From contig JAPLXU010000013.1 in the NCBI GenBank assembly GCA_026395915.1, positions 16,428-80,427 on the forward strand: 64,000 nucleotides of DNA, given 5' to 3'. Position 1 is the first letter of the stretch. The number at the start of each line of letters is the position of its first letter. This DNA is from Candidatus Nomurabacteria bacterium (GTDB lineage Bacteria; Patescibacteriota; Minisyncoccia; Phycocordibacterales; UBA9973). Below the pieces are notes generated by a model. It had not been told where the DNA came from. It saw only the letters and a program-made list of their open reading frames with translations, and ran no database searches. Made by a program: the position numbers and the translations under genes. Of this stretch, positions 1-62,499 are shown piece by piece.

Positions 1-791
1 CTGTTGTTTTCTTCATCTTCGGCCTTATCATCGGCAGTTTTTTGAATGTCGTTATTTTCCGGCTCAATACGAAGAGGTCTTTCGGTGGCAGGAGCGGATG
101 CATGTCTTGTTTGAATAAACTCTCTTGGTATGAGCTTATTCCGCTTTTCAGCTTTCTCGGTTTGAAAGGAAGGTGCCGAAATTGCAAAAGCAAAATTTCG
201 ATTCAGTATCCTTTGGTGGAATTTGTGACGGGCATCGTTTTTGCTTTTCTTTTTTTAAGACTTTTTGCTTCTGGTGGACAAAATAGCTTTTTAACTTTAC
301 CGTTTATTATAACTTACACTTATTATGCTATCACCTTTTCGCTTTTGATGGTTATCTCAGTTTACGATTTAAGACACAAAATAATTCCCGATTCACTTGC
401 TTTTATTTTTGGCGCACTGGCTTTTCTCGGTTTATTTTTCTTCCACGGCGGAAATTTTTACTGGCAGATGCCGTCAATTCTAGAATTTTTGTCGGGCTTT
501 TTAATTGCTTTACCTTTTGCTTTTTTTTGGTTTGTGTCGAGTGGCAGGTGGATGGGTCTTGGAGATGCAAAGCTCGCTCTCGGCATCGGCTGGTTGCTCG
601 GTTTTGTCGGCGCGCTTTCAGGTCTCGTCATAGCTTTTTGGTCTGGAGCACTAGTAGGGATTTGTCTTATTATTTTCAAGAGCAGTAAAACAAGTAGATT
701 AGGAATGAAAAGCGAAATTCCATTCGCTCCATTTCTGGTCTTCGGAGCCTTCCTGGTTTTTATTTTTGGATTGAATCTTTTTGGGCTATGA
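1..791 (+). CDS. pilD: Type IV prepilin leader peptidase (A24 family), 5'-partial
   Basis: ORF 42..791 continues in frame to the window start (..FGLIIGSFLNVVIFRLN, the typical PilD N-terminal helix). Has CxxC...CxxC (CMSC..CRNC) and a polytopic TM core with GLGDAKL. Confidence 0.8.
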   Translation, partial: VVFFIFGLIIGSFLNVVIFRLNTKRSFGGRSGCMSCLNKLSWYELIPLFSFLGLKGRCRNCKSKISIQYPLVEFVTGIVFAFLFLRLFASGGQNSFLTLPFIITYTYYAITFSLLMVISVYDLRHKIIPDSLAFIFGALAFLGLFFFHGGNFYWQMPSILEFLSGFLIALPFAFFWFVSSGRWMGLGDAKLALGIGWLLGFVGALSGLVIAFWSGALVGICLIIFKSSKTSRLGMKSEIPFAPFLVFGAFLVFIFGLNLFGL

Positions 792-1429
792 AAAAAATGA
801 TAAAAATACAAAAGAATAAAGGTATGACTTACATAGAACTGATTGTAGTTCTTTCTATTTTTGCGATAATGAGTTCGATAGTTATTTTTAATTATGAACA
901 GTTCCAAGCGAAAGTGGATGTCAAAAATCTGGCGAGCGATATTGCTTTGAAAATTGTCGAAGCGCAGAAGTCAGCTCTGGACGGACAATTACCATCACTC
1001 ACTCAGCAATCACAGATAGATTCAACGTGGAAACCTTCTTATGGAGTTTATTTTGATCTTTCAACTGACAGCAAAAGTTTTATTTATTTTACTGATCTTA
1101 ACAATATTAACAATAATCCTGGTACGCAAAATAGCCAGTATGACGGAACTTCTTCTTGTAATGGTGAATGCATAGATAAAATTCTAATAACTAGGAATGA
1201 TTCTATATCTCAGATAGCAAGTTGCACAGGTTCTCCCATTGTTTGCACTCCAATTACAAATCCTTTTTCTGTGTCTTTTTCGAGACCCAGCTCAACTGCT
1301 GTATTTTTTTCCAACACTACACAATTAGTATTAACGGGTGCTTCCTACATTCAAATTACAATCAAGTCGCCAAAAACAGCTTCCGCCACAATAAAAGTCT
1401 ATCCTTCAGGTAGGATTCAAGTAGACTAG
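788..1429 (+). CDS. Type IV pilin-like/pseudopilin (prepilin-type N-terminal cleavage/methylation motif)
   Basis: N-terminus KG|MTYIELIVVLSIFAIMSSIV after a basic leader. Immediately downstream of pilD. Confidence 0.6.
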   Translation: MKKMIKIQKNKGMTYIELIVVLSIFAIMSSIVIFNYEQFQAKVDVKNLASDIALKIVEAQKSALDGQLPSLTQQSQIDSTWKPSYGVYFDLSTDSKSFIYFTDLNNINNNPGTQNSQYDGTSSCNGECIDKILITRNDSISQIASCTGSPIVCTPITNPFSVSFSRPSSTAVFFSNTTQLVLTGASYIQITIKSPKTASATIKVYPSGRIQVD

Positions 1430-2135: not shown

Positions 2136-2579
2136 ATGAAATTATTTTTTAAAAAAGTTAATAAGACAAATAAGGGTTTCACTTTAGTAGAGATGCTTGT
2201 TGCCATTTCGATTTTTACTGTGTCATTGCTTGGCATAATGTCTGTTTTGGCATCTGGTGTTGCTAATACCACTTATGCTAAACAGAAAATGGTAGCTACT
2301 TATCTGGCGCAAGAAGGTATCGAATATGTGAGAAATATGCGAGATACCGAAGTTTTATATGGGTCTGGTAATATTATCGCTAGATGGAATAGATTTAAAA
2401 ATAATCCCAACATTGCTAGTACAATACCTGCTCCTTCTGATGCAAGTTTTACTCGCACAATCTCAATGACCAAAATAAATTCAGATGAGGTGCAAATTTT
2501 TTCGAAAGTTGAATGGACCCAAGGTTCCGGCTCTTACAGCATAACTTTTTCAGAAAATTTATTTAATTGGATAGAATAG
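2136..2579 (+). CDS. Type IV pilin-like protein (prepilin N-terminal motif)
   Basis: KG|FTLVEMLVAISIFTVSLLGI motif. 147 aa. Confidence 0.7.
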   Translation: MKLFFKKVNKTNKGFTLVEMLVAISIFTVSLLGIMSVLASGVANTTYAKQKMVATYLAQEGIEYVRNMRDTEVLYGSGNIIARWNRFKNNPNIASTIPAPSDASFTRTISMTKINSDEVQIFSKVEWTQGSGSYSITFSENLFNWIE

Positions 2580-2583
2580 AATT

Positions 2584-3114
2584 ATGGAGATAAAAAAATT
2601 ACAAAAGAATAAGGCCTGCCCGCATTACTACGCAAAGCGTTGTAGGCGGGGATTCGTAATACTTTTTGCAGTTACGTTGGCGGCTATTCTTTTGTCTATA
2701 GCTATCGGTGTTACGAATGTGGCTTTGAAAGAAATAAAATTTAGCACATCAGCCAAGGGTACCAACGACGCTTTTTTTGCTGCTGATACAGGTATTGAAT
2801 GCGCGCTAGTTAATGATAAATCAACTATAAACTCTTTTACACAATCTGGAGGTCCATCTTCTATACAATGCATTGGTTTGACAATTACTCTCACTAAAAC
2901 CGGCACTTCTTTAAATCCTGTTTGGGATTTTGTAGTTCCAAGTTTGGGAAGTTCAAGTCAGTCTTGCGCTAAAGTGAAAGTTACGAAAGATTTTTCGCTC
3001 AATACTGCTGTTGTTGTTTCAAAAGGATACAATAACGGAAGTGGTGGGGATCCTTCGAATTGGACGTGTTCTAATACCAATAATGTAGAACGAGAATTAC
3101 AGGTAAGCTATTAA
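2584..3114 (+). CDS. Minor pilin-like protein (PilX_N-like hydrophobic N-terminus)
   Basis: RRGFVILFAVTLAAILLSIAIGV hydrophobic segment. Last gene of the pilin cluster. Confidence 0.4.
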   Translation: MEIKKLQKNKACPHYYAKRCRRGFVILFAVTLAAILLSIAIGVTNVALKEIKFSTSAKGTNDAFFAADTGIECALVNDKSTINSFTQSGGPSSIQCIGLTITLTKTGTSLNPVWDFVVPSLGSSSQSCAKVKVTKDFSLNTAVVVSKGYNNGSGGDPSNWTCSNTNNVERELQVSY

Positions 3115-3121
3115 CTGCGGT

Positions 3122-5245: not shown

Positions 5246-5262
5246 TTTATTGCAGATGATAA

Positions 5263-5349
5263 GGAGGGTTCGCATAGTGGTCTAGTGCGCATCCCTGGAA
5301 AGGATGTATGTCCGAAAGGGCATCGAGAGTTCGAATCTCTCACCCTCCG
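5263..5349 (+). tRNA. tRNA-Ser (anticodon GGA)
   Basis: Hand-folded cloverleaf: acceptor GGAGGGT/ACCCTCC, anticodon loop CUGGAAA, long variable arm, T-arm GAGAG-TTCGAATC-TCTC. Confidence 0.8.
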
Positions 5350-5387
5350 CACGGCCATTTTGGCTGTTTAAAAAATAAATAAAATTT

Positions 5388-5460
5388 GCCATCCTAGCTC
5401 AGTTGGTAGAGCACGTCTTTCGTAAAGACGGGGTCCCGAGTTCGATCCTCGGGGATGGCT
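5388..5460 (+). tRNA. tRNA-Thr (anticodon CGU)
   Basis: Acceptor GCCATCC/GGATGGC, D-arm GCTC-AGTTGGTA-GAGC, anticodon stem-loop CGTCT-TTCGTAA-AGACG, T-arm CCGAG-TTCGATC-CTCGG. Confidence 0.8.
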
Positions 5461-5461
5461 C

Positions 5462-6343
5462 ATGGATAAAGAAAGCATACAGCAAAAAATAAATGAGTTA
5501 GAGACGCAGATGCTCGCGCCGGAATTTTGGAATGATAAAAACAAAGCGCAAACGATCATCAAAGAAATTGCCGATTTGAAAAGTTCGCTTTCGGGCGTCG
5601 GTAAGTTTGATAAGGGTAACGCTATTGTGACTATTTTTTCCGGCGCAGGCGGGGACGACGCGGAAGATTTTTCGGCTATGCTTTACAGAATGTATAGGAA
5701 ATTTTTTGAAAAAAAAGGCTGGGGAATGGAGCTTATTCATTCGAACGAGAACGATCATGGAGGTTACAGAAATATAACTTTTGAAATATCCGGTAAAAAT
5801 GTCTATGGAACTTTGAAAAACGAATCAGGAGTGCATCGCTTGGTCCGCATTTCGCCTTTCAATGCCAAACAGCTTCGTCACACTTCTTTTTCGATGGTGG
5901 AAGTTATACCGAAATTTGAAAAGACTAACAGCGCGGACATAGAATTGCCGGAAAAAGACATAGAAATTTCTATTGCTCGTTCTGGTGGTCCCGGAGGACA
6001 GAATGTGAACAAGAGAGAAACAGCGGTGAGAATTGTGCATAAACTTACAGGGCTTTCCGTTCACGTGACGTCAGAAAGATCTCAAGCGCAGAATAAAGAA
6101 AAAGCGATAGATATTTTGAAGGGTAAACTTTTTAAAAGAAAGGAAGAAGAAAAAATCGCGAGAGAAAAAGGAATGTACATAAGCAAGACAACTTCCATCG
6201 AGTGGGGGAATCAGATTCGCTCGTATGTCCTTCATCCGTATAAAATGGTAAAAGACCACAGGACAGATACCGAGACTTCCAACGTTGACGCAGTTTTAAA
6301 CGGCGATTTGGATATTTTTATTGAAGCAGAGAAAAATTTGTAA
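5462..6343 (+). CDS. prfB: Peptide chain release factor 2 (short form, no programmed frameshift)
   Basis: GGQ motif ([11 protein letters not shown]). RF2-type SPF motif ([15 protein letters not shown]). 293 aa with truncated domain 1. ATG starts 1 nt after tRNA-Thr. Confidence 0.75.
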
Positions 6344-6359
6344 AAGCATTTAAAAAGCA

Positions 6360-7280
6360 ATGATATTTTCTATATTGATTACAATAATCGGCCTTTCGCT
6401 TTTTGAAACGGTTTCGTCTGTTGATAATGCGATTATCAATGCGGAAGTGCTTTCTACGATGGGCGCGCGGGCTCGGCGCTGGTTTCTTACTTGGGGGATA
6501 CTGGTTGCGGTTTTTGTTGTCCGGGGACTTCTGCCTTTCGTAATAATTTGGGCTTTCAATAAGTCGCTCAATCCGATTCAGATCTTGTCGGCCACATGGT
6601 CGAACGATCCTATAGTTTTGGAATCTATAGAGAAATCGGCTCCGATTTTGCTCGTGGCGGGTGGAATTTTTCTTTTATTTTTATTTCTGCATTGGCTTTT
6701 TCTTGAAGATAAACATCTTGGGTTACCGAGAACGGAGAAATTTTTTATGTCGAAAGGCGTTTGGTTCTATGCGACGGTTTCCATCTTACTCGCAGTTATT
6801 TCATGGTTTGCTCTAAAAGAAAATAGCCTGATGGGTTTTGGAGCTGTTGTTGGCTCAAGCATATTTTTTATTACTCACGGTTTTAAACAGAATGCAGAAG
6901 CACAAGAGAAGAGACTGTCCAATAGTGGGCGTTCCGATTTGAGCAAACTTTTATTTTTGGAAATAATTGATAGCACTTTTTCTGTCGACGGGGTTCTAGG
7001 CGCTTTCGCTTTTACTCTTTCGGTGCCTTTGATTTTGCTCGGGAATGGTCTAGGCGCTTTTATAGTACGAGGTCTAACAATTCGGAACATTGAGCGTATT
7101 AAAAAATATGTTTATTTAAAAAATGGGGCGATGTATTCCATTTTGGTTCTTGGTATAATCATGATATTGCACAGTTTTGGTTTCCGTGTTCCCGAATATG
7201 CTTCTCCGCTCGCCACCTTTTCCATAATCGGATTTTTCTTTTGGAAGTCAAAAATACATCTTAAATTAAATTTTAAATAA
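6360..7280 (+). CDS. TerC/DUF475-family integral membrane protein
   Basis: Polytopic membrane protein with SVDNAIINA and SVDGVLGAFAF-like repeated motifs. Confidence 0.45.
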   Translation: MIFSILITIIGLSLFETVSSVDNAIINAEVLSTMGARARRWFLTWGILVAVFVVRGLLPFVIIWAFNKSLNPIQILSATWSNDPIVLESIEKSAPILLVAGGIFLLFLFLHWLFLEDKHLGLPRTEKFFMSKGVWFYATVSILLAVISWFALKENSLMGFGAVVGSSIFFITHGFKQNAEAQEKRLSNSGRSDLSKLLFLEIIDSTFSVDGVLGAFAFTLSVPLILLGNGLGAFIVRGLTIRNIERIKKYVYLKNGAMYSILVLGIIMILHSFGFRVPEYASPLATFSIIGFFFWKSKIHLKLNFK

Positions 7281-22156: not shown

Positions 22157-23848
22157 ATGCAAGCGCAAAATAAAAAATGTCAGAATTGCAAAAAGGACTT
22201 CACGATAGAGTCGGAAGATTTTAATTTCTATGAAAAAATCAAAGTGCCTGCGCCCTCTTGGTGCCCTGAGTGTCGAATGATGCGAAGATTGAATTGGCAG
22301 GGATATCGGATTTTGTACAAAAGGAAATGTGATTTCACGGGAGAGATGATGTTCAGCACGTATCATCAAGATTCTCCATATAAAGTCTATCGCCAAGATA
22401 TTTGGTGGTCAGACAAATGGGATCCGAAAAGTTACGGAAAAGATATCGATTGGAATAGACCGTTTCTTGAACAATTCAAAGAGTTGATGTTAGAAGTTCC
22501 ACACGCTTCTTTAGCCACTGGACATTCGACGATGATTCGTAGCGATTATTGTAATGCGGCCTCAGAGTGTAAAGATTGTTATTTATGTTTTCGCATCACT
22601 GGCGGAGAGGACAGCGCGTATTTGAATACCATTGTCGATGGCAAGCAGTCTTTTGATTGTTCTTTTTTGAATCATTCCGAACTTTGTTATGGATCTACAA
22701 ATATAAATAAATGCTATCAGACTTTCTTTTCACAAGATTGCGCGGAGTGCCATTCTATCTGGTTCTCGCGCGATTTAGTCGGATGTTCTGATTGCATAGG
22801 CTGTATCAATTTGCGTATGAAGCAATATTGCATTTTCAACAAGCAATACAGCAGGGAAGAGTACAAGAAAAAATTTATGGAATTCGATTTCGGAACACTG
22901 GCAAAAATACAAAATTTCCAAAAAGAGACGGAAGAATTCACGAAAAAAGAACCGAGAAGACAATTTCATGGAGTAAAAAACACCAATGTCTCCGGAGAAT
23001 ATATTTCCAATTCAAAAAATGTGCACGATTCGTACCTGTTTGCAAACGGGCTCGATTTGCGATACTGCCAATTTTTAAAAAACGGACCGGCATCCTCATC
23101 CTATGACTGGTCGTTTTTTGGCGACAACGCAGAATTGATGTATGAATGTTGTTGGTGCGGACTGGATTCTCATAATGTGAAATTCAGTTCATGGAATTAT
23201 TACAATCATGATGTCGAGTATTGTTTCGGTTGCCATCATTCCAGCAACCTGTTTGGCTGTGTGAGTTTGATAAAAGGGGAATATTGCATCTTAAACAAAC
23301 AGTATTCGAAAGAAGAATATGAAAAATTAGTTCTTAAAATAAAAAAGCAAATGGCAGAAATTCCATACGAAGATAGACTTGGCAGAGAATATCGTTATGG
23401 CGAAATGTTGCCTGCGGAACTTTCACCGTGGTCTTATAACGAAGCGACAGTCTTCGAATGGTTTCCTCTTAAAAAGGAAGAGGCGGTTGCGAAAGGTTTT
23501 AACTGGCGCGATCCGGATTTGCGCGAATACAAAGATGCGACTGTGGAAATCCCGAGTCATATAAAAGACGTGGAGGACGATGTTTTGCAAGCAATCTTGA
23601 AATGTGTCTCTTGTGGAAAAAATTATCAAATTATTCCAAAAGAATTGCAATTTTTGCGCCGTTTCAATCTTCCGATTTCAGACAATTGTCCACTTTGTCG
23701 AGATCGAGCTCGTATTAAACAACTGAACCCGATGCAGATTTATAATCGTGAATGCGCAAAATGTGGCAAAGAAATTAAGACTTCCTATGCACCTGACCGT
23801 CCGGAAGTAGTATACTGTGAAAAGTGTTACCAACAAGAAGTGTATTAG
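22157..23848 (+). CDS. Cys-rich multi-zinc-ribbon/CxxC-repeat protein, paralog A (unknown function)
   Basis: 563 aa. N-terminal double Zn ribbon KCQNCKK..FYEKIKVPAPSWCPECR..RKCDFTGE. Two internal halves each ending GC.NLR.K.YCIFNKQY.REEY. C-terminal ribbon ..LCPLCR...ECAKCGKEIKTSYAPDRPEVVYCEKCYQQEVY. Confidence 0.7.
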   Translation: MQAQNKKCQNCKKDFTIESEDFNFYEKIKVPAPSWCPECRMMRRLNWQGYRILYKRKCDFTGEMMFSTYHQDSPYKVYRQDIWWSDKWDPKSYGKDIDWNRPFLEQFKELMLEVPHASLATGHSTMIRSDYCNAASECKDCYLCFRITGGEDSAYLNTIVDGKQSFDCSFLNHSELCYGSTNINKCYQTFFSQDCAECHSIWFSRDLVGCSDCIGCINLRMKQYCIFNKQYSREEYKKKFMEFDFGTLAKIQNFQKETEEFTKKEPRRQFHGVKNTNVSGEYISNSKNVHDSYLFANGLDLRYCQFLKNGPASSSYDWSFFGDNAELMYECCWCGLDSHNVKFSSWNYYNHDVEYCFGCHHSSNLFGCVSLIKGEYCILNKQYSKEEYEKLVLKIKKQMAEIPYEDRLGREYRYGEMLPAELSPWSYNEATVFEWFPLKKEEAVAKGFNWRDPDLREYKDATVEIPSHIKDVEDDVLQAILKCVSCGKNYQIIPKELQFLRRFNLPISDNCPLCRDRARIKQLNPMQIYNRECAKCGKEIKTSYAPDRPEVVYCEKCYQQEVY

Positions 23849-23897
23849 GGAAATACATATTTAAGCCATGGCGTAAATATGTATTTGAAGTAAAAAC

Positions 23898-25643
23898 ATG
23901 AAACAAGAAACAAAAAAATGTCAGAATTGCAAAAAAGAATTCACGATAGAGTCGGAAGATTTTAATTTTTACGAAAAAATAAGAGTGCCCGCGCCGACTT
24001 TTTGTCCTGAATGCAGATTGATCAAGCGTCTGCTTATGCGCAACGAGCGCACTCTTTATAAGCGAAAATGCGATTCTTGCGGTGAAGAAAAAATACTAGT
24101 TTTCCCGAAAGAAAGCGAATATAAAGTCTATTGCCACACTTGTTTTTACAGCGATGATTGGGACGGGCAAACTTATGAAAAAGATTACGATTTTTCTAAA
24201 ACTTTTTTTGAGCAATACAAAGAGCTATATGACAGTGTTCCCAGATTGGGAATTGCTAAACAAGGCTTTCAAGTGAACAGCGAATATGTAAATCGCGCGA
24301 GCGACGTGAAAAATTGTTATCTTATTTTTGCAAGCAACGTCAACGAAGATTGTTATTATGGCGTGGCATATTGGGAATCAAAAAATTGCATGGATTGCTA
24401 TAACGCACGAAAATGTGAGAGGTGTTATGAGTGCATAGATTGTTATAAATGTAACGGCGTGAAGTATTCGAAAGAATGCAACGAATGCATCGATTCCTAT
24501 TTCTTGAACAATTGTCGAAACTGCCAAAATTGTTTCGGTTGCACGAATTTAAGAAATAAAAGTTACTGCATTTTTAACAAGCAATACACGAGGGAAGATT
24601 ATTTGGCGACAATTTCCGAACTCAAGCTTTCGAACGGGGCGGAAATAGAGAAAATCGAAAAAGAAGTGAAAAAGGAATCTCTAAATTACGTTGTACCTTG
24701 CATCGTGGAAAAACATTCGGTGAATGTTTCCGGCAATTGGATTGAGAATTCAAAAAATGTGCAGAATTCTTATAATTGCGACAGGGTGGAAGATGGAAAA
24801 TATTTGTTTGGTGTTTCTGACGCCAAGGACGCTATGGATAACACATATTGGGGAGCAGGAAGCGAGCTAATTTATGAATCGTCCAGTATCGGCAGGCAAT
24901 GTTCGTCGGTATTTTTCTCGAATGAATCTTGGGATCAATTGGTACGAGCTGAGTATTGCATCAATTGTTTTGCTTCCTCGGACTTGTTTGGTTGTGTGGG
25001 GCTTCGCAAAAAGCAGTATTGCATTTTGAATAAACAATATACGAAAGAAGAGTACGAAGAATTGGTTCCTAAAATCAAAGAGCAAATGAAAAATATGCCT
25101 TTTGTGGACAACGTCGATAGAACTATCAGTTATGGCGAATTTTTCCCATCTGACATGCTTCCTTTTGCCTATAATGAATCTATAGCGCAAGAATATTTTC
25201 CAAAAACCGAAAAGGAAGCGCTTGCCGAAGGATATCGCTGGAGAAAACCGGATACGAAAAATTATGTTCCGACAATGTCGGCCGATGAATTGCCGAAAAA
25301 TATTAAACTGGTCAACGACAATATCACAAGTGAAATAATAGCTTGCGCGCACGAAGGGAAGTGCAACGAGCAGTGCACAACCGCTTTCAAAATTGTTTTC
25401 AATGAATTGCAATTTTACCGCGCAAACAATATACCGCTTCCGAAACTTTGCCCGAATTGCCGTCACTACGAAAGATTACTGAAACGCCAGCCGATAAAAC
25501 TCTGGCACAGGCAATGCATGTGTGACAAAGAAAATCACATTCACGGCGCGAATGTTTGCGAAACAGAATTTGAAACTTCATACGCTCCAGACAGGCCGGA
25601 GATTGTTTATTGCGAAAAATGTTATCAACAAGAAGTGTATTGA
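23898..25643 (+). CDS. Cys-rich multi-zinc-ribbon/CxxC-repeat protein, paralog B (unknown function)
   Basis: 581 aa. Same architecture and identical C-terminal 22 aa (TSYAPDRPE.VYCEKCYQQEVY). Central run of C-x2-C units at 9-12 aa spacing. Confidence 0.7.
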   Translation: MKQETKKCQNCKKEFTIESEDFNFYEKIRVPAPTFCPECRLIKRLLMRNERTLYKRKCDSCGEEKILVFPKESEYKVYCHTCFYSDDWDGQTYEKDYDFSKTFFEQYKELYDSVPRLGIAKQGFQVNSEYVNRASDVKNCYLIFASNVNEDCYYGVAYWESKNCMDCYNARKCERCYECIDCYKCNGVKYSKECNECIDSYFLNNCRNCQNCFGCTNLRNKSYCIFNKQYTREDYLATISELKLSNGAEIEKIEKEVKKESLNYVVPCIVEKHSVNVSGNWIENSKNVQNSYNCDRVEDGKYLFGVSDAKDAMDNTYWGAGSELIYESSSIGRQCSSVFFSNESWDQLVRAEYCINCFASSDLFGCVGLRKKQYCILNKQYTKEEYEELVPKIKEQMKNMPFVDNVDRTISYGEFFPSDMLPFAYNESIAQEYFPKTEKEALAEGYRWRKPDTKNYVPTMSADELPKNIKLVNDNITSEIIACAHEGKCNEQCTTAFKIVFNELQFYRANNIPLPKLCPNCRHYERLLKRQPIKLWHRQCMCDKENHIHGANVCETEFETSYAPDRPEIVYCEKCYQQEVY

Positions 25644-25663: not shown

Positions 25664-27934
25664 ATGCGACTCAAGACACTTGAAATAAATGGCTTTAAAT
25701 CTTTTGCCCAGAAAACCGTTTTGGAATTCAATAACAGCATCGTCTGCGTGGTTGGCCCGAATGGTTCTGGAAAATCAAATGTTGTAGAAGCTCTCCGTTA
25801 TGTTTTGGGCGAGCAATCTATGAAGTCAATGCGCGGAAAGTCGGGTTTAGACCTTATTTTTAAAGGCTCAAAAAGCTTGTCCAAAGGTTCACGCGCCGGT
25901 GTCACAATCTATTTTGACAATTCCGACAAGGTTTTCAAACTTTCAAATAGCGAAGGAGGGGAGATAAATTTGAATTATGAAACTGTCAGCATTTCTCGCG
26001 AAGTTTATTCTGATGGATTGAACAAGTACATTTTGAATGGCTCGGAAGTTAGGTTGAAAGATATTCACAATCTCTTGGCGTCGGTCAATATCGGTTCCTC
26101 AGGACATCACATCATTTCTCAAGGTGAGGCGGATAGAATTTTAAACGCAAACATGGTGGACAGACGTGAGATGGTGGAAGACGCGCTCGGTCTCAAAATT
26201 TATCAATACAAAATAAAAGAAAGCGAGAGGAAACTCGAGCGAACGGAAGAAAACATGAAAGAGGTGACTCTTCAACGAAGAGAAAACGCTCCGCATTTGA
26301 ATTTTTTAAAAAAACAAGTAGAGAAGTTTGAGAAAGCAAAAGAAATGCAGGCCGACTTGGCTATTTTATATAAAGAATATTTAAGCAAGGAAAGTGTTTA
26401 TCTTGAAAATGAAAAAAACACGCTATCTCTTCAAAAAGATAAACTAAAAAGTGAACTTGAAAACGTTGCAAGCAAAATTTCAGCTACTGAAGATAACAAT
26501 TCTGCCGAGGGTAATAAAAAAATAAACGCCTTGCGTGTCGTTGAAGGCAATTTGAATTCTATTCGCGGAATGAAATCTGAAATGGAGCGCAAGCTCGGCA
26601 GAATAGAAGGAATGATCGAAATGGAAACTCGCAGGGCGGAACAAAATATCGCCGTTGTTGAAATTTCACAAGAAGAAATTAAAGCCGTTATCGCCGACAT
26701 CAACAATTCTATCGATGAAGCTATTTCCAAGAATGACGTGAGCGAAGTTAAACCAATTTTGGAGCGTATCAAAAGTATCTTGAAGAAATTCTCTTCGCAA
26801 AATACAGAAAAGTCCGGCGAAAATATCGAAATAAAAAATCTTAAACAAAGCCAGCAGGAGATTCTCGAAGAGATGAAGGGGATAGAGAGCAAGGAAAAAG
26901 ATATTGCAAAATCAGCAGAACTGCTCAAACAAGAAATAAACAAAGAGATGGAAGCCTTGCGGGATCTCGAACGAGAGAAATTCACTTGGAAGGTCAGGCA
27001 ACAAGAGTTGTCTTCTGCTTTAGAACTTACAGCGATCAAAGAAGGGAATCTAAAAAGCCGAACCGAAGCTTTTCTTAATGAGATAAAAGAAGGTGTGGCG
27101 CTGATCGGGCAAGAGATTTTGGCTTACAAAGATGAAGTTGCGGAAGCCTTGCTTCCGCCAGCTGGCGGAAGCAAGGCTTCCGCAACAACTCAAGAAGAAT
27201 TGAAACGCAAAATTGAAAGGATAAAAATAAAATTGGAAGATGCCGGCCTCGGCAGTGGCGCGGAAGTCCTGAAAGAATTCAAAGAAGTTTCGGAGAGGGA
27301 TGGATTTCTGGCTAAAGAAATGGAAGATTTAGCGAAAAGCATAGAGTCATTGGAAAAATTAATCGCAGATCTCAAAGAAAAAATAGATTTGGAATTCAAA
27401 GAAGGCGTTAGAAAAATCAATGTGGAATTTCAGGAATTTTTCTCTCTAATGTTCGGCGGGGGAACAGGTTCTCTTTCTATCGTGGTTGAAAATAAGAAGA
27501 AAAGGAAAAACGAGTTTGAAGAGGATGAATCTGTCGACGTCGAAAGCTCTGGCGAGTCGAAGGAAGAAATCGTGTTTGAAAAGGGGATAGAAATAAATGT
27601 TTCTCTTCCGCACAAGAAAGTCAAAGAGCTCAATGCTTTTTCAGGGGGAGAAAGATCGCTCACTTCCATCGCGCTTCTTTTTGCCATGTCGCAAGTCAAT
27701 CCGCCGCCATTTCTCGTTTTGGACGAGACCGATGCGGCGCTCGACGAAGCAAACTCTCGCAAATATGGAGACATGCTTGAGAAGTTGTCCAAACATTCAC
27801 AGCTCATCGTCGTCACCCACAATCGTGAGACGATGTCTCGAGCGGGTGTGCTTTATGGAGTGACGATAGGAAGCAACGGAGCCTCAAAACTTCTTTCTGT
27901 GAAATTCGACGAAGCAACTGCTATCGCGAAATAA
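25664..27934 (+). CDS. smc: SMC-family ATPase (short SMC-like chromosome segregation protein)
   Basis: N-terminal Walker A GPNGSGKSN. Long coiled coil. C-terminal signature FSGGERSLTSIALLFAM and Walker B/D-loop FLVLDETDAALD. 756 aa. Confidence 0.7.
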   Translation: MRLKTLEINGFKSFAQKTVLEFNNSIVCVVGPNGSGKSNVVEALRYVLGEQSMKSMRGKSGLDLIFKGSKSLSKGSRAGVTIYFDNSDKVFKLSNSEGGEINLNYETVSISREVYSDGLNKYILNGSEVRLKDIHNLLASVNIGSSGHHIISQGEADRILNANMVDRREMVEDALGLKIYQYKIKESERKLERTEENMKEVTLQRRENAPHLNFLKKQVEKFEKAKEMQADLAILYKEYLSKESVYLENEKNTLSLQKDKLKSELENVASKISATEDNNSAEGNKKINALRVVEGNLNSIRGMKSEMERKLGRIEGMIEMETRRAEQNIAVVEISQEEIKAVIADINNSIDEAISKNDVSEVKPILERIKSILKKFSSQNTEKSGENIEIKNLKQSQQEILEEMKGIESKEKDIAKSAELLKQEINKEMEALRDLEREKFTWKVRQQELSSALELTAIKEGNLKSRTEAFLNEIKEGVALIGQEILAYKDEVAEALLPPAGGSKASATTQEELKRKIERIKIKLEDAGLGSGAEVLKEFKEVSERDGFLAKEMEDLAKSIESLEKLIADLKEKIDLEFKEGVRKINVEFQEFFSLMFGGGTGSLSIVVENKKKRKNEFEEDESVDVESSGESKEEIVFEKGIEINVSLPHKKVKELNAFSGGERSLTSIALLFAMSQVNPPPFLVLDETDAALDEANSRKYGDMLEKLSKHSQLIVVTHNRETMSRAGVLYGVTIGSNGASKLLSVKFDEATAIAK

Positions 27935-27935
27935 G

Positions 27936-28668
27936 AACTACGGAGGCGTTGCCTCCGTAGTTCGGCTACAACTAATTATTATCAAAGTTAAGCCATTCAA
28001 ATAGCTCTTTTTTGTGATCGTCAGGATTTTTAAAATATTCAGGGAATTGAGAAGGATTTATAATTTTGAACTTTTTGTCTTTATATTCTTTTAAACTTGA
28101 ATATGAGTAAGAAAAAACATATTTTAGTAAATTTGCTACATTTCGATTTTTATTTTCTTTCCAGTTTTTATCTATTAGTTTTGCCGGATTTAAATGTATG
28201 TATGAATAAAGATATTTTAAATAATTATCACTGTTTGCGTGGATTGATTTGAATACACTCTCGTACAATTTTCCGGTCCTCTCATATTTTTTATTGAAAT
28301 ACATTGAATAACTGGTCATAAGTTTAAGCATATATTTTGAGATTCCGTGTTCTATTTTCTCATGAACCAGAATGTGAAAATGATTAGGCATTAGACAATA
28401 TGTTCCAATATCAATAATAGTTTCCCCACGATCAAAATTCTCGCCAATATTTCTTAATTCTATACTTTTTGCTGTGTTGCAGATGTACATTAAAAATAGG
28501 AAGTGCTTATGGTCCTGTTCATCCAGAAATATTGTTCTTTTTTCTGTACCACGATTATATAAATGATAATACTCACCTGGAGCAAAAACTTGTTTTCGTA
28601 AAGTCATGTATAAAGTATAGCAAATAACTACTACGGAGGCAATGCCTCCGTATGTTCTCCGTATGTTA
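27936..28668. mobile_element. IS200/IS605-like minimal element (tnpA only) with subterminal hairpins
   Basis: Hairpins tacggaggc-gtt-gcctccgta (27939-27959) and tacggaggc-aat-gcctccgta (28632-28652) flank the HUH transposase gene. Tandem ctccgtatgtt x2 at 28647-28668. Confidence 0.6.
27972..28607 (-). CDS. tnpA: IS200/IS605-family HUH-Y1 transposase (RAYT-like TnpA)
   Basis: HuH motif NHFHILV. Catalytic Tyr region YLYSYIHLNP. 211 aa. Paralogous to 61795-62451. Confidence 0.7.
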   Translation of the reverse strand: MTLRKQVFAPGEYYHLYNRGTEKRTIFLDEQDHKHFLFLMYICNTAKSIELRNIGENFDRGETIIDIGTYCLMPNHFHILVHEKIEHGISKYMLKLMTSYSMYFNKKYERTGKLYESVFKSIHANSDNYLKYLYSYIHLNPAKLIDKNWKENKNRNVANLLKYVFSYSYSSLKEYKDKKFKIINPSQFPEYFKNPDDHKKELFEWLNFDNN

Positions 28669-32636: not shown

Positions 32637-32674
32637 ATACTAGAAGCTATAACCTAGAAGCTATAACCTAATTT

Positions 32675-33367
32675 ATGCGTTTTCATATAATCACAATTTT
32701 TCCGGAGATTTTCGATTCATACATTCATGAATCTATTTTAGGGCGGGCGATAAAAAACAAACTTGTAGAAATGAAATTTTACAATCCGCGAGATTTTGTT
32801 AAAGTGCCGAAGAATAAAAATCAGAATAATTATAAACCGGTGGATGACAGACCATATGGTGGGGGACCGGGCATGGTGATGAGAGCCGAGCCGATTTTGT
32901 CTGCCGTCGCCAAAGCTATGACGGACAAGAAAGTTAAAAAAGGCAAAGTTAAAATTATTATTTTTTCCCCCTCAGGAAAAAAGTTTGATACGGCTTACGC
33001 AAAAAAATCTGCGCAAAAATACACGGACATTGTCCTAATTTCTGGACGTTATGAAGGCATAGATGCCCGAGTGCAAAAGATTTTACGCGCGGAAGAAATT
33101 TCAATAGGCGATTATGTGCTGACTGGCGGTGAACTTCCAGCGATGGTTTTGATAGATTCTATTTCTCGTCAAATTCCGGGAGTTTTAGGCAAGTTTGAGT
33201 CTCTAGAAGAAGAAAGAGTTTCCAGTAGTGAAGTTTACACCCGTCCGGAAATTTTGAAATATCCCTTCGGCAAGGCTCAGGGTAAAAATTATAAAGTTCC
33301 AAAGGTCTTATTGTCAGGCAATCACAAGCTTATTGAAAACTGGAAAAAATCTAAAGGTAACTTGTAG
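32675..33367 (+). CDS. trmD: tRNA (guanine37-N1)-methyltransferase
   Basis: MRFHIITIFPEIF. SPOUT knot motifs (IISGRYEGIDARV; GDYVLTGGELPAMVLIDSI). Confidence 0.85.
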   Translation: MRFHIITIFPEIFDSYIHESILGRAIKNKLVEMKFYNPRDFVKVPKNKNQNNYKPVDDRPYGGGPGMVMRAEPILSAVAKAMTDKKVKKGKVKIIIFSPSGKKFDTAYAKKSAQKYTDIVLISGRYEGIDARVQKILRAEEISIGDYVLTGGELPAMVLIDSISRQIPGVLGKFESLEEERVSSSEVYTRPEILKYPFGKAQGKNYKVPKVLLSGNHKLIENWKKSKGNL

Positions 33368-37514: not shown

Positions 37515-37931
37515 CTATTACGAAGCCATTGACATATTCTTTCAATATGATATGTTACTGACAATATGCAAACCATTGACAGAAGTAGCAACGTGTATTT
37601 GCTACCTGTATGGATGAGGGTCGTATTGTCGGTAGGTATTGGTATCATCGCGATCTGTATTGTGATTGGTGCTTGTATCTGTTTCGACTATGCGGCAGAA
37701 CAGTTCTCCTTGTGGTGTGCTCGACATTAGGGCAGATAACGAGGAGGAAAAAAGCGCGCTGGCTTGAGGGACAACTCCTTCTTGCTGGCGCTTTTTATTT
37801 GCCTCCTTCGTAATCCCCAATTCGCATTTGACAAAAAAAGAAAAATAGAGTAGGCTGTTTGAGATTCATTGATTGAGTATTGGATGCAATCTCCGTAATT
37901 ATTATAAGCTTTAACAGGCCTTTTTTAATTT

Positions 37932-40900
37932 ATGCATACAATAGCCAAGCGTCCGAAGAAGTATTTTTCTAGATACAAGAAACCTCTCGTCGAATTTCCG
38001 AATTTGATCGAGGCACAATTAAAAAGTTTTAAATGGTTGGTGGAGCAGGGAATCGGAGAAGTGTTCAAGGAATTTTCTCCCATTAGCGATTACTCCACAA
38101 AAAAGTTTCAGCTAGAATTCACTTCTTTCTCTCTTTCTGAATGCAAGTATGATGAAAATAATGCGAAGGTAAATAAACTTTCGTATCAAGGTCTCTTGAA
38201 AGCTCGAGTAAAATTGACGAACAAAGTTTTGGGCACTGTGAAAGAGCAGGAAATTTTCATGTCGGAACTTCCTCTCATGACGAATCACGGAACTTTTATC
38301 ATCAACGGTGTAGAACGCGTTATCGTTCCGCAACTCGCGCGAAGTTTTGGAGTTTTCTTTACAGAATCCGAAAGCAAAGGCAACAGATATTTTGGCGCCA
38401 AGATTATTCCTGCGCGAGGTGTTTGGATTGAGATAGAGTCGGAAGCTGATGGAGCCATTTATATAAGAATAGACAAGAAAAGAAAATTCCCTGCGACAGC
38501 GCTTCTGCGAGCTATGGGTTATGAGAGTAATGAGGATATTTTGAAGGCTTTTTCCACGAATTCTATTTTCGAAGAAACGATAAAAACTTGTTTGGCGAAA
38601 GACGGAGTTAAAAGTCTGAATGATTCGTATGTAGAAATCTACAAACGCTTGAGAGATGGAGATATGGCTACAGCGGAAAACGCAAAAGAATTTATCAATT
38701 CTTTGTTTACACCTGAGCGTTACGATCTTTCTCCTGTCGGCCGTTTCAGATTCAACCAACGTTTCGGGAAGCCTATGGATGAAGTGGCGCTCGCTCGTCG
38801 AACTATTTCCAAAGAAGATTTAGCGACGGTGATTATGAATATCATCACTTTGAATAATACTCCCGACGCAAAGAGCGATGATATAGATCACTTGGGTCAG
38901 AGACGTGTAAGATTTGTCGGCGAAATACTTCAACAGAAAGTTCGCACTGGTATGATGCAGATCAAGAGAAACATTCAAGACAGAATGTCTATTATCGACG
39001 TTGATACTGCGATGCCTATCGCCATTATCAACCAACGTCCGCTTCAAGCTCGAATAAAAGAATTTTTCACCACGAACCAGCTTTCCCAATTTATGGCGCA
39101 AGAAAATGTGCTTTACGAAATAGAACATTTGCGCACTCTTTCGGCTTTGGGACCCGGAGGTCTCACTCGCGAGCGCGCAGGACTCGAAGTCCGCGATGTG
39201 CATCCTTCTCACTATGGAAGAGTTTGTCCTATTCACACTCCTGAAGGTCCGAACATTGGGCTCATTTTGCACCTTTCCACTTACGCTAAAATAAATGATT
39301 TTGGAATTATTGAAACTCCATATGTAAAAGTTTCAAAAGGAAAAATCACCGGCGAAGTAGTTTACTTAAACGCGCTTGAGGAAGAAAAGTACAATATCGC
39401 GCATGCCGGAATTCCTTATGATGAAAGTGGAAGAATCACAGAAGAAAAAGTAGAAGCCAGAATCAAGACAGAGCCGGGTCAAGTTTCCCGCGATGAAGTT
39501 GATTTCATTGACGTCTCTCCCAACCAAGCTTTTTCGATAGCGACTTCAATGATTCCGTTTTTGGAACACAACAATGCAAACAGAGCATTGATGGGAAGCA
39601 ACATGCAGAAGCAGGCAGTGCCTTGCGTGTTGCCCGAAGCTCCTCTTGTCGCCACAGGCATAGAAGAATTAGCGGCTCGCGATGGAGGACGTTTGGTTAT
39701 CGCTGAAGAAGATGGTCTAATCTCTTATTTAGATGCGAAAAAAATAACTATCAAAGGGAAAAAAGAGCAGACTTATCCTCTTGTTAATTTTATGAGGAAT
39801 AACAACTTCGCTGTATTTCATCAGCGTCCGTTGGTGAATGTCGGTGATAAGGTGAAGAAGGGCGATGTGTTGGCGGATACCAGTAGCACAGTAGGTGGGC
39901 AAATTTCTCTAGGGCAAAATATTTTTGTTGCCTTTCTGTCTTGGTCTGGATCAACTTATGAAGATGCAATAGTTGTTTCTGAACGTTTAGTGAAAAAGAG
40001 TAAATTTACGTCGGTCTATGTCGAAGAATTCACTTGCGTTGTTCGTGATACGAAACTCGGACCTGAAATCACTACTCGAGATATACCAAACGTCGGGGAA
40101 CTCAAACTGAAAGATCTAGACGAAGATGGCATTGTTCGCATTGGCGCGGAAGTTAGAGAAAATGATATTTTGGTTGGTAAGATCACTCCAAAAGGTGAGA
40201 CAGAACTTACTCCAGAAGAGCGACTCTTGCGTTCGATTTTTGCCGAGAAGGCGCGAGATGTCAAAGACACATCACTCCGAGTGGAACACGGAAAACGCGG
40301 ACGCATTATTGGTGTGAAGATTTTTTCTCGCGATTTGGGACATACGCTTGAAGCGGGAATCATCAAAAAAATTGTGATTGAAGTGGCTCAGATTAGAAAT
40401 ATTTCGGTTGGAGACAAACTTTCCGGACGACATGGAAACAAAGGAGTTATCTCAAGAATTTTGCCTGAAGAAGATATGCCTTACATGGCAGATGGCACGC
40501 CGGTTGATATTATTTTGTCGCCACTTGGTGTTCCTTCTCGTATGAACTTGGGACAAATATTGGAAATGCATCTTGGTATGGCGGCAAACAGTCTCGGTTA
40601 TCAAGCTATCGTTCCGCCGTTTTTGGGAGCTAAACACGAGGAAATCAGTCAAGAATTGGAAAAAGCCGGATTGCCAGCAAATGGAAAAGTGAAACTTTTT
40701 GACGGACGCACCGGAGAAGCTTTTGAACAAGATGTCGCTGTCGGTTATATGTACATGTTGAAACTTCATCACATGGTGGAAGACAAGATTCACATGCGTT
40801 CTATTGGACCTTATTCTTTAATCACTCAACAGCCTCTCGGCGGAAAAGCTCAAGGCGGTGGACAGAGATTCGGGGAAATGGAAGTCTGGGCGCTCGAAGG

Positions 40901-41102
40901 TTACGGCGCGGCTTATACTTTGCGTGAAATGCTTACTATTAAGTCTGACGATATTCTAGGTCGTTCGCAGACTTTTGATTCTATTATCAAAAATGAAATG
41001 ATTCGACCGCCAAATTCACCAGCTTCGTTCAATGTGCTCCTAAATTACTTGCGAGGGTTGGCGCTTGATGTGAATTTAAAGAAAGGCGTAGACGAGAAAT
41101 AA
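37932..41102 (+). CDS. rpoB: DNA-directed RNA polymerase subunit beta
   Basis: Full-length conserved RpoB (…GPGGLTRERAGLEVRDVHPSHYGRVCPIHTPEGPNIGL…). Confidence 0.95.
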   Translation: MHTIAKRPKKYFSRYKKPLVEFPNLIEAQLKSFKWLVEQGIGEVFKEFSPISDYSTKKFQLEFTSFSLSECKYDENNAKVNKLSYQGLLKARVKLTNKVLGTVKEQEIFMSELPLMTNHGTFIINGVERVIVPQLARSFGVFFTESESKGNRYFGAKIIPARGVWIEIESEADGAIYIRIDKKRKFPATALLRAMGYESNEDILKAFSTNSIFEETIKTCLAKDGVKSLNDSYVEIYKRLRDGDMATAENAKEFINSLFTPERYDLSPVGRFRFNQRFGKPMDEVALARRTISKEDLATVIMNIITLNNTPDAKSDDIDHLGQRRVRFVGEILQQKVRTGMMQIKRNIQDRMSIIDVDTAMPIAIINQRPLQARIKEFFTTNQLSQFMAQENVLYEIEHLRTLSALGPGGLTRERAGLEVRDVHPSHYGRVCPIHTPEGPNIGLILHLSTYAKINDFGIIETPYVKVSKGKITGEVVYLNALEEEKYNIAHAGIPYDESGRITEEKVEARIKTEPGQVSRDEVDFIDVSPNQAFSIATSMIPFLEHNNANRALMGSNMQKQAVPCVLPEAPLVATGIEELAARDGGRLVIAEEDGLISYLDAKKITIKGKKEQTYPLVNFMRNNNFAVFHQRPLVNVGDKVKKGDVLADTSSTVGGQISLGQNIFVAFLSWSGSTYEDAIVVSERLVKKSKFTSVYVEEFTCVVRDTKLGPEITTRDIPNVGELKLKDLDEDGIVRIGAEVRENDILVGKITPKGETELTPEERLLRSIFAEKARDVKDTSLRVEHGKRGRIIGVKIFSRDLGHTLEAGIIKKIVIEVAQIRNISVGDKLSGRHGNKGVISRILPEEDMPYMADGTPVDIILSPLGVPSRMNLGQILEMHLGMAANSLGYQAIVPPFLGAKHEEISQELEKAGLPANGKVKLFDGRTGEAFEQDVAVGYMYMLKLHHMVEDKIHMRSIGPYSLITQQPLGGKAQGGGQRFGEMEVWALEGYGAAYTLREMLTIKSDDILGRSQTFDSIIKNEMIRPPNSPASFNVLLNYLRGLALDVNLKKGVDEK

Positions 41103-61136: not shown

Positions 61137-61715
61137 TTATTGTCTAACTCTTCCAACATTTATAAACAAGTCAGTGATTTTATCATTAGATATTTTATAC
61201 CCAACTGATGCTTTATTTTGTTGTGAAATATCAGATTCAACCCCAATTAATAATTCATCAAAATATAATTTTGGGGAACTTTTTATCAATCGTCGATCTG
61301 GATATTGAGAAGCGATGTAAGCCATATATTCTTTTACTACGGCGTTATTTTGATTAAAGGTAAATATAAGCCCCTTGATTCTTTTTAATTCTTGTATGGC
61401 GCGACTTGTAGAAACTTCACCACAACATGAAGATCCTTCAAGCACTACATATACTTTATCTGCAAAATATTTACTAGCATTACTGAAATCTGACTTATTT
61501 ATTGCTTCTTCAAATGCTACAATGTGTTCAGCAATAGTCACTTGTTGTGTTGGGATTGGTTGATTTTGATTATTTGTCTGTTGCGTTCCAGTATCAACGA
61601 TTGGAGGAGTTTCTGCTTTTTTATTTTCATAAATATAGACACCGCCACCTATCACTAATAATCCTATTATTACTAAAAGCACTGGCACAATGAAACCTTT
61701 TTGTAAGTTTTTCAT
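61137..61715 (-). CDS. Hypothetical membrane-anchored protein
   Basis: N-terminal TM (IVPVLLVIIGLLVIGGGVYI). Gln/Thr-rich linker. Globular C-terminus. No family recognised. Confidence 0.3.
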   Translation of the reverse strand: MKNLQKGFIVPVLLVIIGLLVIGGGVYIYENKKAETPPIVDTGTQQTNNQNQPIPTQQVTIAEHIVAFEEAINKSDFSNASKYFADKVYVVLEGSSCCGEVSTSRAIQELKRIKGLIFTFNQNNAVVKEYMAYIASQYPDRRLIKSSPKLYFDELLIGVESDISQQNKASVGYKISNDKITDLFINVGRVRQ

Positions 61716-61767: not shown

Positions 61768-62499
61768 AAACCTGCAAGGCAAGACCTTGCAGGTTTAGTC
61801 ATTAAAACTTAACCATTCAAAAATTTCTCTTTGGAATGATTTGCTATCTGAAAAATACTCTGGAAAAGATTTGATGTCTAATATTTTATTTTGAATTCTT
61901 TTTATTCCCAAATAATCAAGATAGCTTGAGTATTTATAATTTTGCAAATATTCCAGAGTTTCTTTTTTATTTTTAATTCCAACTTCTTTCCAATCTTTTT
62001 GTATTAGTTTGATAGGATTCAAATGAATATAGGAAAATAAATATTTTAAGTGGCGGTCATCTTTTGCGTGTTCTGATTTAAATTTACCTTCAAAAAGTCC
62101 GCCAGTTCTTTTATATTTTTTATTGTAATACATTGCGTAAGCAGTTGTAAGTTTTTGCATAAATTTACTGATACCATTTTCTTCTTTTTGAGTTATTAGA
62201 ATATGAAAATGATTAGACATAATACAATAAGACCCGATGGACGCAATTTGTTTTCCTCTTCCAAAATCATATGGGCTTTCTCCTTTTGAAAGGATACCTG
62301 CTCTAAAATTATTAATAGAGTTACAAGCAAATAAAAGACCCATGAAATGGAAATAATCTTCATTGTCGTGAAAAATTTTCTGTTTACTATTTCCGCGATT
62401 ATAAATATGGTAATACTCGTCACTGATCAAATTTACTTTTCTTAAAGACATGTATATATTATATACTTGAAAATCTGCAAGGCAAGACCTTGCAGATTT
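61768..62499. mobile_element. IS200/IS605-like minimal element #2 with distinct subterminal hairpins
   Basis: aaacctgcaagg-caaga-ccttgcaggttt (61768-61796) and aaatctgcaagg-caaga-ccttgcagattt (62471-62499) flank the transposase gene in the same orientation. Confidence 0.6.
61795..62451 (-). CDS. tnpA: IS200/IS605-family HUH-Y1 transposase (RAYT-like TnpA), paralog 2
   Basis: HuH SNHFHILI. Tyr region YLFSYIHLNP. Overall similarity to 27972-28607 (…YYH(L/I)YNRG…YC(L/I)M(P/S)NHFHIL…). Confidence 0.7.
   Translation of the reverse strand: MSLRKVNLISDEYYHIYNRGNSKQKIFHDNEDYFHFMGLLFACNSINNFRAGILSKGESPYDFGRGKQIASIGSYCIMSNHFHILITQKEENGISKFMQKLTTAYAMYYNKKYKRTGGLFEGKFKSEHAKDDRHLKYLFSYIHLNPIKLIQKDWKEVGIKNKKETLEYLQNYKYSSYLDYLGIKRIQNKILDIKSFPEYFSDSKSFQREIFEWLSFND

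Follow-up and report, generated by a model that had tools for sequence, protein, structure and literature searches.

A probable minimal RAYT-type cassette with cognate flanking hairpins in a Candidatus Nomurabacteria genome

In a 64,000-nucleotide stretch of contig JAPLXU010000013.1 of a Candidatus Nomurabacteria bacterium (hereinafter the window; G+C content 38%), we analyzed a compact element of 732 bp, element #2 (61768–62499), that is made up of a hairpin, a single Y1 gene and a second hairpin, and is lodged between proS and rpsB-tsf. It is probably a minimal cassette of the type centered on REP-associated tyrosine transposases (RAYTs; REP, repetitive extragenic palindrome), a “REPtron”, in which the gene for a class-2 HUH/Y1 single-stranded DNA nuclease/ligase stands between two hairpins recognized by its product. 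The cassette belongs to a large clade specific to the candidate phyla radiation (CPR) and apparently representing an undescribed version of the RAYT/REP system; judging by motifs, this clade comes closest to TnpAY1 subclass 2.1, for which flanking hairpins were unreported. A paralogous unit, element #1, is likewise such a cassette but has another stem, and the window thus holds two paralogous protein/hairpin specificities. The features of element #2 are as follows:

61795–62451, minus strand: Y1 gene of element #2, an intact HUH/Y1 open reading frame (ORF) of the RAYT class, 218 aa
61768–61796, no strand: downstream cognate hairpin of element #2, 12-bp perfect stem, 5-nt loop
62471–62499, no strand: upstream cognate hairpin of element #2, 12-bp perfect stem, 5-nt loop
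62458–62485, minus strand: promoter-like site of the Y1 gene of element #2, 10/12 consensus matches

The original prediction, made from the sequence of the window, had described a hairpin pair peculiar to this gene with both members in the same orientation, and this is what we find. The two hairpins read AAACCTGCAAGG-CAAGA-CCTTGCAGGTTT (61768–61796) and AAATCTGCAAGG-CAAGA-CCTTGCAGATTT (62471–62499), with both loops being CAAGA on the plus strand, i.e., TCTTG in gene orientation, and with a single difference between them in the form of one compensated C:G to T:A pair. The downstream hairpin shares 2 nt with the stop codon of the gene, and the foot of the upstream hairpin abuts the conserved proS-side sequence ‘cttttggtcaaag’. 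Folded as single-stranded DNA, they yield −13.8 kcal/mol (downstream; z = −7.4) and −12.8 kcal/mol (upstream; z = −6.5), with none of 200 shuffles being as stable in either case, and their 21-nt core occurs 3 times in the 64-kb window against an expectation of 0.00. The notion that these are chance palindromes beside a decaying relic gene, which has nothing in its favor except the low copy number in the window, runs counter to the folding scores and the recurrence of the 21-mer; moreover, the ORF is intact rather than degenerate and frameshifted, its catalytic residues are invariant, it is under purifying selection, with a ratio of nonsynonymous to synonymous divergence (dN/dS) of 0.05–0.09, and the same architecture recurs in dozens of loci. 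The probability of this explanation is accordingly negligible. Generic terminators can likewise be rejected at this locus, as neither hairpin of element #2 passes a terminator scan; a terminator-like property is retained in part for element #1, both of whose hairpins pass such a scan, and for some dispersed copies. A search of the window against Rfam recovered three tRNAs only, with no match at the hairpins. Loop-inversion or excision polymorphism was sought in 10 Logan contigs coding for the identical protein, and all 10 keep the same hairpins in the same orientation. Seven of these contigs (L001, L004–L007, L009 and L010) start 31–36 nt before the upstream hairpin; assemblies thus tend to break just outside it, and such cassettes may as a result be under-represented in metagenome-assembled genomes (MAGs).

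The product of element #2 is, as had been claimed, a second HUH-Y1 protein of 218 aa with the motifs SNHFHILI and YLFSYIHLNP, and is paralogous to the protein of element #1 (49% identity, E = 3e-72). It matches the Pfam model Y1_Tnp (PF01797) with 37.9 bits against a cutoff of 23. The HUH motif corresponds to H81-F-H83 and the tyrosine motif to Y141-IHLNP, beyond which lies a C-terminal extension of 70 aa with a YSSY motif. The residues H81, H83 and Y141, together with the HLN that follows the latter, are invariant in 44 homologs, and both HUH and YIHLNP are also invariant in a set of 13 homologs. An AlphaFold2 model of the protein (pLDDT 86.9) retrieved 4er8, 2a6m, 2vjv, 2xm3 and 2f4f in Foldseek searches with probabilities of 0.99–1.00; the best of these by TM-score is 4er8_A (TMt 0.69), the Escherichia coli TnpAREP bound to a REP hairpin, whereas the TnpA structures of IS608, ISDra2 and IS200 score 0.5–0.6. 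Searching the PDB by sequence, either with this protein on its own or with a profile built from 13 sequences, returned nothing significant.

The tyrosine motif separates the major classes of these enzymes: Y-x3-Q marks the IS200 transposases, while Y-x3-NP marks class 2, which includes TnpAREP/RAYT (Quentin et al. 2018, PMC6006769). The YIHLNP of element #2 fits the Y-x3-NP pattern of class 2 and not the Y-x3-Q pattern of class 1. Within class 2, the combination of NH[YF]H, Y[IV]HLNP and an ‘SS’ tail is typical of subclass 2.1, equivalent to Bertels Group 1 (PMC6006769; PMC5581495) and largely comprising the TIRYTs of Di Nocera et al.; it offers the best motif fit, with NHFH, YIHLNP and YSSY in our protein, as judged by inspection rather than with the authors’ profiles. 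Other features shared with this subclass are the length of ~220–240 aa and the presence of ~2 copies per genome at ~49% identity, and the ...NPV...WSSY layout is common to plasmid-borne members such as that of Rhodospirillum rubrum. On the other hand, subclass 2.1 is reported to lack REP-like flanking structures, with its TIRYTs having terminal inverted repeats of the form GGGG[AT][CG]A[CG] (PMC6006769), whereas the CPR clade displays clear hairpin pairs; the gene of element #2 is flanked by perfect hairpins, and that repeat consensus is absent. Further, the C-terminal helix-turn-helix (HTH) or DnaA_C-like domain of subclass 2.1 is not detected here (a Pfam scan of residues 150–218 with E up to 1 gave no Bac_DnaA_C, HTH_23 or HTH_28), and its nearest plasmid-borne members are only 24–32% identical. 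The tyrosine motifs of subclass 2.6 from Bacteroidetes (YIH[QN]NP) and of class 3 (YV..EQ) are both unlike that of element #2, and these groups come from other taxa with weak stems being described for them, as opposed to the perfect stems found here.

This protein family is very large: among the 8,000 candidates scored there were at least 7,940 matches, nearly all from CPR MAGs and many of them 65–86% identical, and 731 clusters formed at 50% identity reach E <= 1e-30. Some of these relatives are already named ‘REP-associated tyrosine transposase’ by NCBI. Plasmid records furnished 13 matches, all 24–35% identical and hence no close relative, and viral contigs a single remote match of 23% identity; carriage by phages or plasmids was rejected in view of these low-identity hits.

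To assess the association between gene and hairpins, we collected 80 metagenomic loci with homologs of 39–81% identity, along with the window and other loci, which together gave 78 genes with complete flanks; a matched pair required a perfect hairpin on each side of the gene, with no fewer than 7 nt of arm in common. Such pairs bracket 47 of the 78 homologs as against 0 of 394 other ORFs of the same DNA; the hairpin pair is specific to this Y1 gene family. Many of the downstream hairpins overlap the last codons of the gene. The arms are almost the same within a locus (similarity 0.98) and differ between loci (0.57), with an intermediate value of 0.91 for loci whose proteins are at least 75% identical; across homologs, hairpin divergence correlates with protein divergence (Mantel r = 0.16; 11 of 2000 permutations as high). 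The upstream region (positions −62 to −12) was further aligned for all 16 loci with at least 59% identity, with no selection for hairpins: in this alignment, 9 of the 12 stem pairs change on both sides, with the lower stem covarying, and pairing is preserved in 86.5% of the cells compared to 33–50% with a slid partner, a value reached by 0 of 500 shuffles. Orthologs occupying the same site as element #2 have arms reading CTGCAAGG in the window and in L033, CTGCTAGG in L115 and CCGTAAGG in L119; each time, the stem has been altered on both arms and in both copies. Arm similarity, the Mantel test and covariation thus uphold the suggestion that hairpin and protein diverge together. The exact 21-mer also flanks a merely 64%-identical homolog in the MAG L032.

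The hairpin also occurs away from the gene, as was envisaged, both within the window and in genomes of the GTDB; our census covered the type-2 hairpin, i.e., that of element #2. The third copy in the window is as follows:

4847–4869, no strand: third type-2 hairpin copy, an exact 21-nt core with a 9-bp stem, in frame in ligA, encoding SARQDLAE

The host gene of this copy is the ligA ORF at 3122–5245 (plus strand). Across GTDB genomes, the exact 21-mer was found in 22 stretches, 19 of which are from CPR or unclassified MAGs, with a maximum of six exact matches per representative MAG (two MAGs with six each). Some dispersed copies are intergenic and accompanied by runs of A and T, in the manner of bidirectional terminators. 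A second set is found in frame within housekeeping genes, namely ligA (that of the window and that of L015), mnmA, miaA, a DUF192 gene, rplC, a NifS-like gene and obg. The in-frame copies of the 21-mer in other genomes are located thus:

L015, 848–868
L011, 313
L014, 1810
L016, 4268
L012, 470
L022, 3603
L028, 5693
L029, 2839

Of the six possible reading frames, the in-frame copies make use of just three, yielding S/TARQDLAE, LQGKTLQ or LQGLALQ, and the length of the host protein is changed little or not at all. In the ligA gene of the MAG L015, the same 21-mer occupies the same codons as in the window. The LigA segment in question aligns without gaps to the E. coli and distant CPR orthologs; a comparison of the 120 closest orthologs shows it to be hypervariable and 3 aa longer than in those without it, and two LigA orthologs have an additional insert at the position of the loop. 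In the ligA of L121, a different stem is kept via synonymous compensatory changes. In five loci, the Y1 gene too contains cognate hairpins. The idea that the hairpin embedded in ligA tracks the flanking hairpin of its genome obtained no support in the lone contig readable for both (L119, L120). We also observed that in L074 the Y1 gene (3896–4519) lies directly beside ligA (4545–6620), which there carries a copy of the cognate hairpin of its own locus at a position unlike that in the window, and that in L110 ligA (1–1884) lies directly beside a Y1 gene (2007–2678). This Y1–ligA adjacency thus recurs in two distant loci, although it may be a coincidence.

The upstream hairpin is at the same time part of the promoter of the Y1 gene. 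In element #2, the −35 box TTGCCT (62485–62480) consists of parts of the loop and 3′ arm of this hairpin and is followed by a 16-nt spacer and the −10 box TATAAT (62463–62458), which ends 6 nt before the ATG; we infer that the gene is expressed from a leaderless mRNA. Element #1 presents an equivalent arrangement, TTGCCT-17-TATACT (28642–28614, minus strand), which also ends 6 nt before the ATG. The start codon is unambiguous in 21 homolog loci; in 15 of these, a TTGNNN-16..18-TANNNT promoter ends 15 nt or less (most often 6 nt) upstream of the start, and its −35 box is inside the hairpin every time. Read in the direction of the gene, the upstream hairpin invariably has the sequence ...AGG-TCTTG-CCT..., with an orientation that is fixed among homologs, and the core AGG(T/C)CTTGCCT, which supplies the −35 box, is invariant across orthologs. 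The paralogous cassette comprises:

27972–28607, minus strand: paralogous Y1 gene of element #1, 211 aa, Y1_Tnp match of 26.7 bits
27935–27963, no strand: downstream hairpin of element #1, 13-bp stem GAACTACGGAGGC-GTT-GCCTCCGTAGTTC, directly after the stop codon of an SMC gene
28632–28652, no strand: upstream hairpin of element #1, 9-bp stem, containing the −35 box TTGCCT

The hairpin pair of element #1 has the general form CTACGGAGGC-NNN-GCCTCCGTA, of which no further copies exist in the 64-kb window. The two hairpin types had been regarded as unrelated in sequence; this is not entirely so, as both share TTGCCT at the junction of the loop and the 3′ arm in gene orientation.

These observations bring up an explanation in which the palindromes are expression signals and nothing else, the upstream one being a promoter or operator bound as double-stranded DNA and the downstream one a terminator or insulator, with no action of the Y1 protein on either. 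It would account for the invariant part of the hairpin being exactly the core that contains the −35 box and for the fixed orientation of the upstream copy, and finds some sustenance in the terminator-like behavior of the element #1 hairpins and in the A- and T-runs around several dispersed copies in other genomes. A promoter, however, explains neither the identical second copy past the stop codon, which occurs in either orientation, nor the concerted change of both copies between loci, nor the covariation of the lower stem; nor does it explain the copies within coding regions, including the Y1 gene itself. The absence of such a pair from all 394 other ORFs and the failure of the element #2 hairpins in the terminator scan also speak against it. 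Given the downstream copies, the intragenic copies and the stem covariation, a pure promoter/terminator reading fails, and we consider it distinctly improbable.

The cassette has persisted at its site over a long period. The arrangement proS–Y1 gene–rpsB is common to the window, L033 (81% identity), L115–117 (80%) and L119 (83%); these same-site orthologs are separated by a synonymous divergence (dS) of 1–2 with dN/dS of 0.05–0.09, and the window and L033 continue to share the very same 29-nt hairpin. A single neighborhood is found across the 24 contigs read for P0016. Near-identical copies of the element are absent among the loci seen, with the two copies in the window being only 49% identical. 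There is also turnover of sites. In L034, the site of element #2 is empty, with proS directly beside rpsB and with the conserved ‘cttttggtcaaag’, which adjoins the hairpin foot in the window, being present. In L035, which is collinear with the window over 20–52 kb, it is the site of the 731-nt element #1 that is empty, with only 11 nt between the stop codons of the SMC gene and of a convergent gene. Conversely, L035 and L041, both collinear with the window, have a unit like that of element #2 (64–67% identical) at a site unoccupied in the window, between homologs of the window ORFs 32672–33367 and 37929–41102, and the nearest homologs of element #1 (76–78% identical) are in other genomic contexts.

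An autonomous insertion sequence of the IS200/IS605 type was the headline of the original prediction; on such a reading, the 732-bp unit would transpose by peel-and-paste, with the hairpins serving as its left and right ends. The resemblance is genuine as far as it goes: IS200 (TnpAY1 subclass 1.1) has the same ~0.7-kb size and the same layout of a single Y1 gene between two hairpins, with an upstream hairpin near the expression signals of the gene, and its transposase belongs to the same superfamily, PF01797. In the window, the two hairpins have the same orientation; set against related genomes, both elements look like insertions delimited by their hairpins; collinear relatives hold a unit at another site; and a hairpin-bounded neighboring gene in L119 hints at cassette behavior. 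Yet, the tyrosine motif is Y-x3-NP and not Y-x3-Q, and the protein, with its conserved C-terminal extension, has 218 aa compared to the ~150-aa, core-only TnpA of IS200. Likewise, IS200 is characterized by many near-identical copies and brief persistence at any given site, unlike the divergent copies, the single neighborhood and the orthologs held at one syntenic site through synonymous saturation at dN/dS < 0.1 that we see here. IS200 carries its two hairpins on a single strand; among the 47 homolog loci with matched pairs, the orientation of the downstream hairpin relative to the upstream one is mixed (21 inverted, 18 same, 8 other), and the sparse, low-identity plasmid and viral matches are also at odds with a mobile element. 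As the tyrosine motif, the copy identity and the persistence do not fit, the headline is not supported, and an IS200-type element is unlikely. The domesticated RAYT/REP system, which had been offered as a second option, is the better reading, although the GT[AG]G foot, the hallmark of canonical REPs, and their high copy number are not seen.

Several points weigh against the RAYT-type reading that we favor. The protein scores 42.4 bits with the NCBIfam equivalog NF047646 (REP_Tyr_transpos), whose cutoff of 80 it does not reach. Only 5 of 188 hairpin sides have GT[AG]G at their foot, which is the chance level, and no flanking position is conserved. A high extragenic copy number is not found either, with three copies in 64 kb, of which the sole extra one is intragenic, and with no more than six exact matches per representative MAG. 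Under our definition, 31 of the 78 homolog loci are without a perfect matched pair, some of them (e.g., L017) having imperfect pairs. The promoter role alone could explain the conservation of the invariant core, and the link between protein and hairpin, as read from the sequences, is positional and evolutionary.

Compared to the RAYT/TnpAREP and REP systems (E. coli YafM/RayT, 4er8; class 2), the cassettes nevertheless share a series of traits: i) the HUH/Y1 fold with the best structural match, and the Y-x3-NP motif; ii) a low gene copy number, with divergent paralogs each having its own palindrome; iii) palindromes flanking the gene on both sides; iv) long vertical persistence under purifying selection, here joined by site turnover; v) palindrome doublets and in-frame intragenic copies, including copies inside the RAYT gene, REP insertions in tnpAREP genes having been reported for subclass 2.4 (PMC6006769). 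They differ from them in lacking the GT[AG]G guide at the foot; in having stems that are short and perfectly paired, and an apex and loop that do not vary; in numbering a handful of hairpins per genome instead of tens to hundreds; in the hairpin doubling as the −35 box of the gene promoter; in scoring below the NCBIfam equivalog cutoff; and in their CPR/Patescibacteria hosts. Literature searches combining RAYT, REP or TnpAREP with CPR found no paper linking them.

By analogy with the E. coli TnpAREP and the IS608 TnpA, we propose that the Y1 protein binds the hairpins when they are extruded in single-stranded DNA, and that it might cut and rejoin near the hairpin foot, an activity that could occasionally copy or move a hairpin or the entire hairpin–gene–hairpin unit. 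Because the loop and 3′ arm of the upstream hairpin form the −35 box of the gene’s own promoter, its binding or extrusion would throttle transcription of the gene and thereby bring about autoregulation, while the downstream hairpin, abutting the stop codon, might mark the 3′ end of the unit.

A bolder extension, which we put forward only tentatively and consider rather doubtful, is that there is a CPR-wide RAYT-like clade of ~700 clusters (50% identity), coding for self-contained hairpin–promoter–gene–hairpin cassettes with an autoregulatory −35 hairpin, that writes its hairpins in frame and in a near length-neutral fashion into essential genes such as ligA, mnmA, miaA, rplC, obg and SMC, with the stem then being kept by compensatory synonymous changes. 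If this were true, it would imply a domesticated role in the handling of single-stranded DNA in streamlined genomes in place of selfish spread, and these would be the smallest natural RAYT systems, with 2–6 substrates per genome, for working out RAYT function. Both the benefit of RAYTs to their hosts and the copying of REP-type hairpins are still unsettled, and the systems studied deal with hundreds of substrates in each genome. In the present case, a very large and strongly conserved clade occurs in bacterial genomes that are among the most streamlined known, with few cognate hairpins per gene, one of them in the gene’s own promoter; cognate specificity, autoregulation and hairpin copying are therefore testable with two proteins, two oligonucleotides and one window. 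There is also a bearing on annotation, since thousands of CPR genes labeled ‘transposase’ or ‘IS200-like’ behave as resident genes, and their hairpins can break assemblies and occur inside essential genes.

Finally, some observations concern the surroundings of the two cassettes. Next to element #2 in the window is a gene coding for a 192-aa protein (61137–61715), which was considered as a conserved passenger and ruled out, as the equivalent 197-aa gene in L119 is unrelated. In L119, the 83%-identical ortholog is accompanied by three copies of its cognate hairpin (787–805, 1456–1476 and ~2160–2185), which bracket the Y1 gene and, between it and proS, this LysE-like 197-aa gene; the 192-aa gene of the window is on the opposite side of the cassette. 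Thus, the small genes adjoining the cassette differ from lineage to lineage. The window ends in mreB (~63820), and just beyond mreB-mreC in the Nomurabacteria relative L115, next to mreC, is a third Y1 paralog (112–798, minus strand; 228 aa) with an intact HUH motif, a degenerate tyrosine motif (GYVNKNY) and its own flanking palindrome CCAGATAGAG. The genome of the window may hold such a third Y1 gene just past the right end.

At the site of element #1 (27935–28665), L041 has a different cassette of 1.3 kb (2334–3630) with a 126-aa PaaX_M/Cas2-like ORF bracketed by palindromes of the ATATACGCCATGGCGTATAT type; this convergent-gene junction seems to be a hotspot of small hairpin-bounded cassettes. 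A palindrome like those of L041 is found in the window at 23851–23886, between two ORFs. An indel of ~3.5 kb distinguishes window positions 22157–25643 from L035 1809–1829, with the flanking homologs being adjacent in L035, which lacks the window ORFs 22157–23848 (563 aa) and 23898–25643 (581 aa). Inside the neighboring SMC-like ORF (25664–27934, plus strand) lies a 50-nt perfect palindrome (27137–27186) composed of two GCGGAAGC-NNN-GCTTCCGC hairpins head to head, with the in-frame reading AEALLPPAGGSKASA; it is shared with the L035 ortholog and renders the protein 9 aa longer than the L041 ortholog. Its stem resembles the flanks of the distant homolog in L073 (GGGAAGC upstream, TGCGGGAAGC downstream), and the palindrome has the appearance of a REPIN-like doublet belonging to a third hairpin type, for which the window contains no gene.

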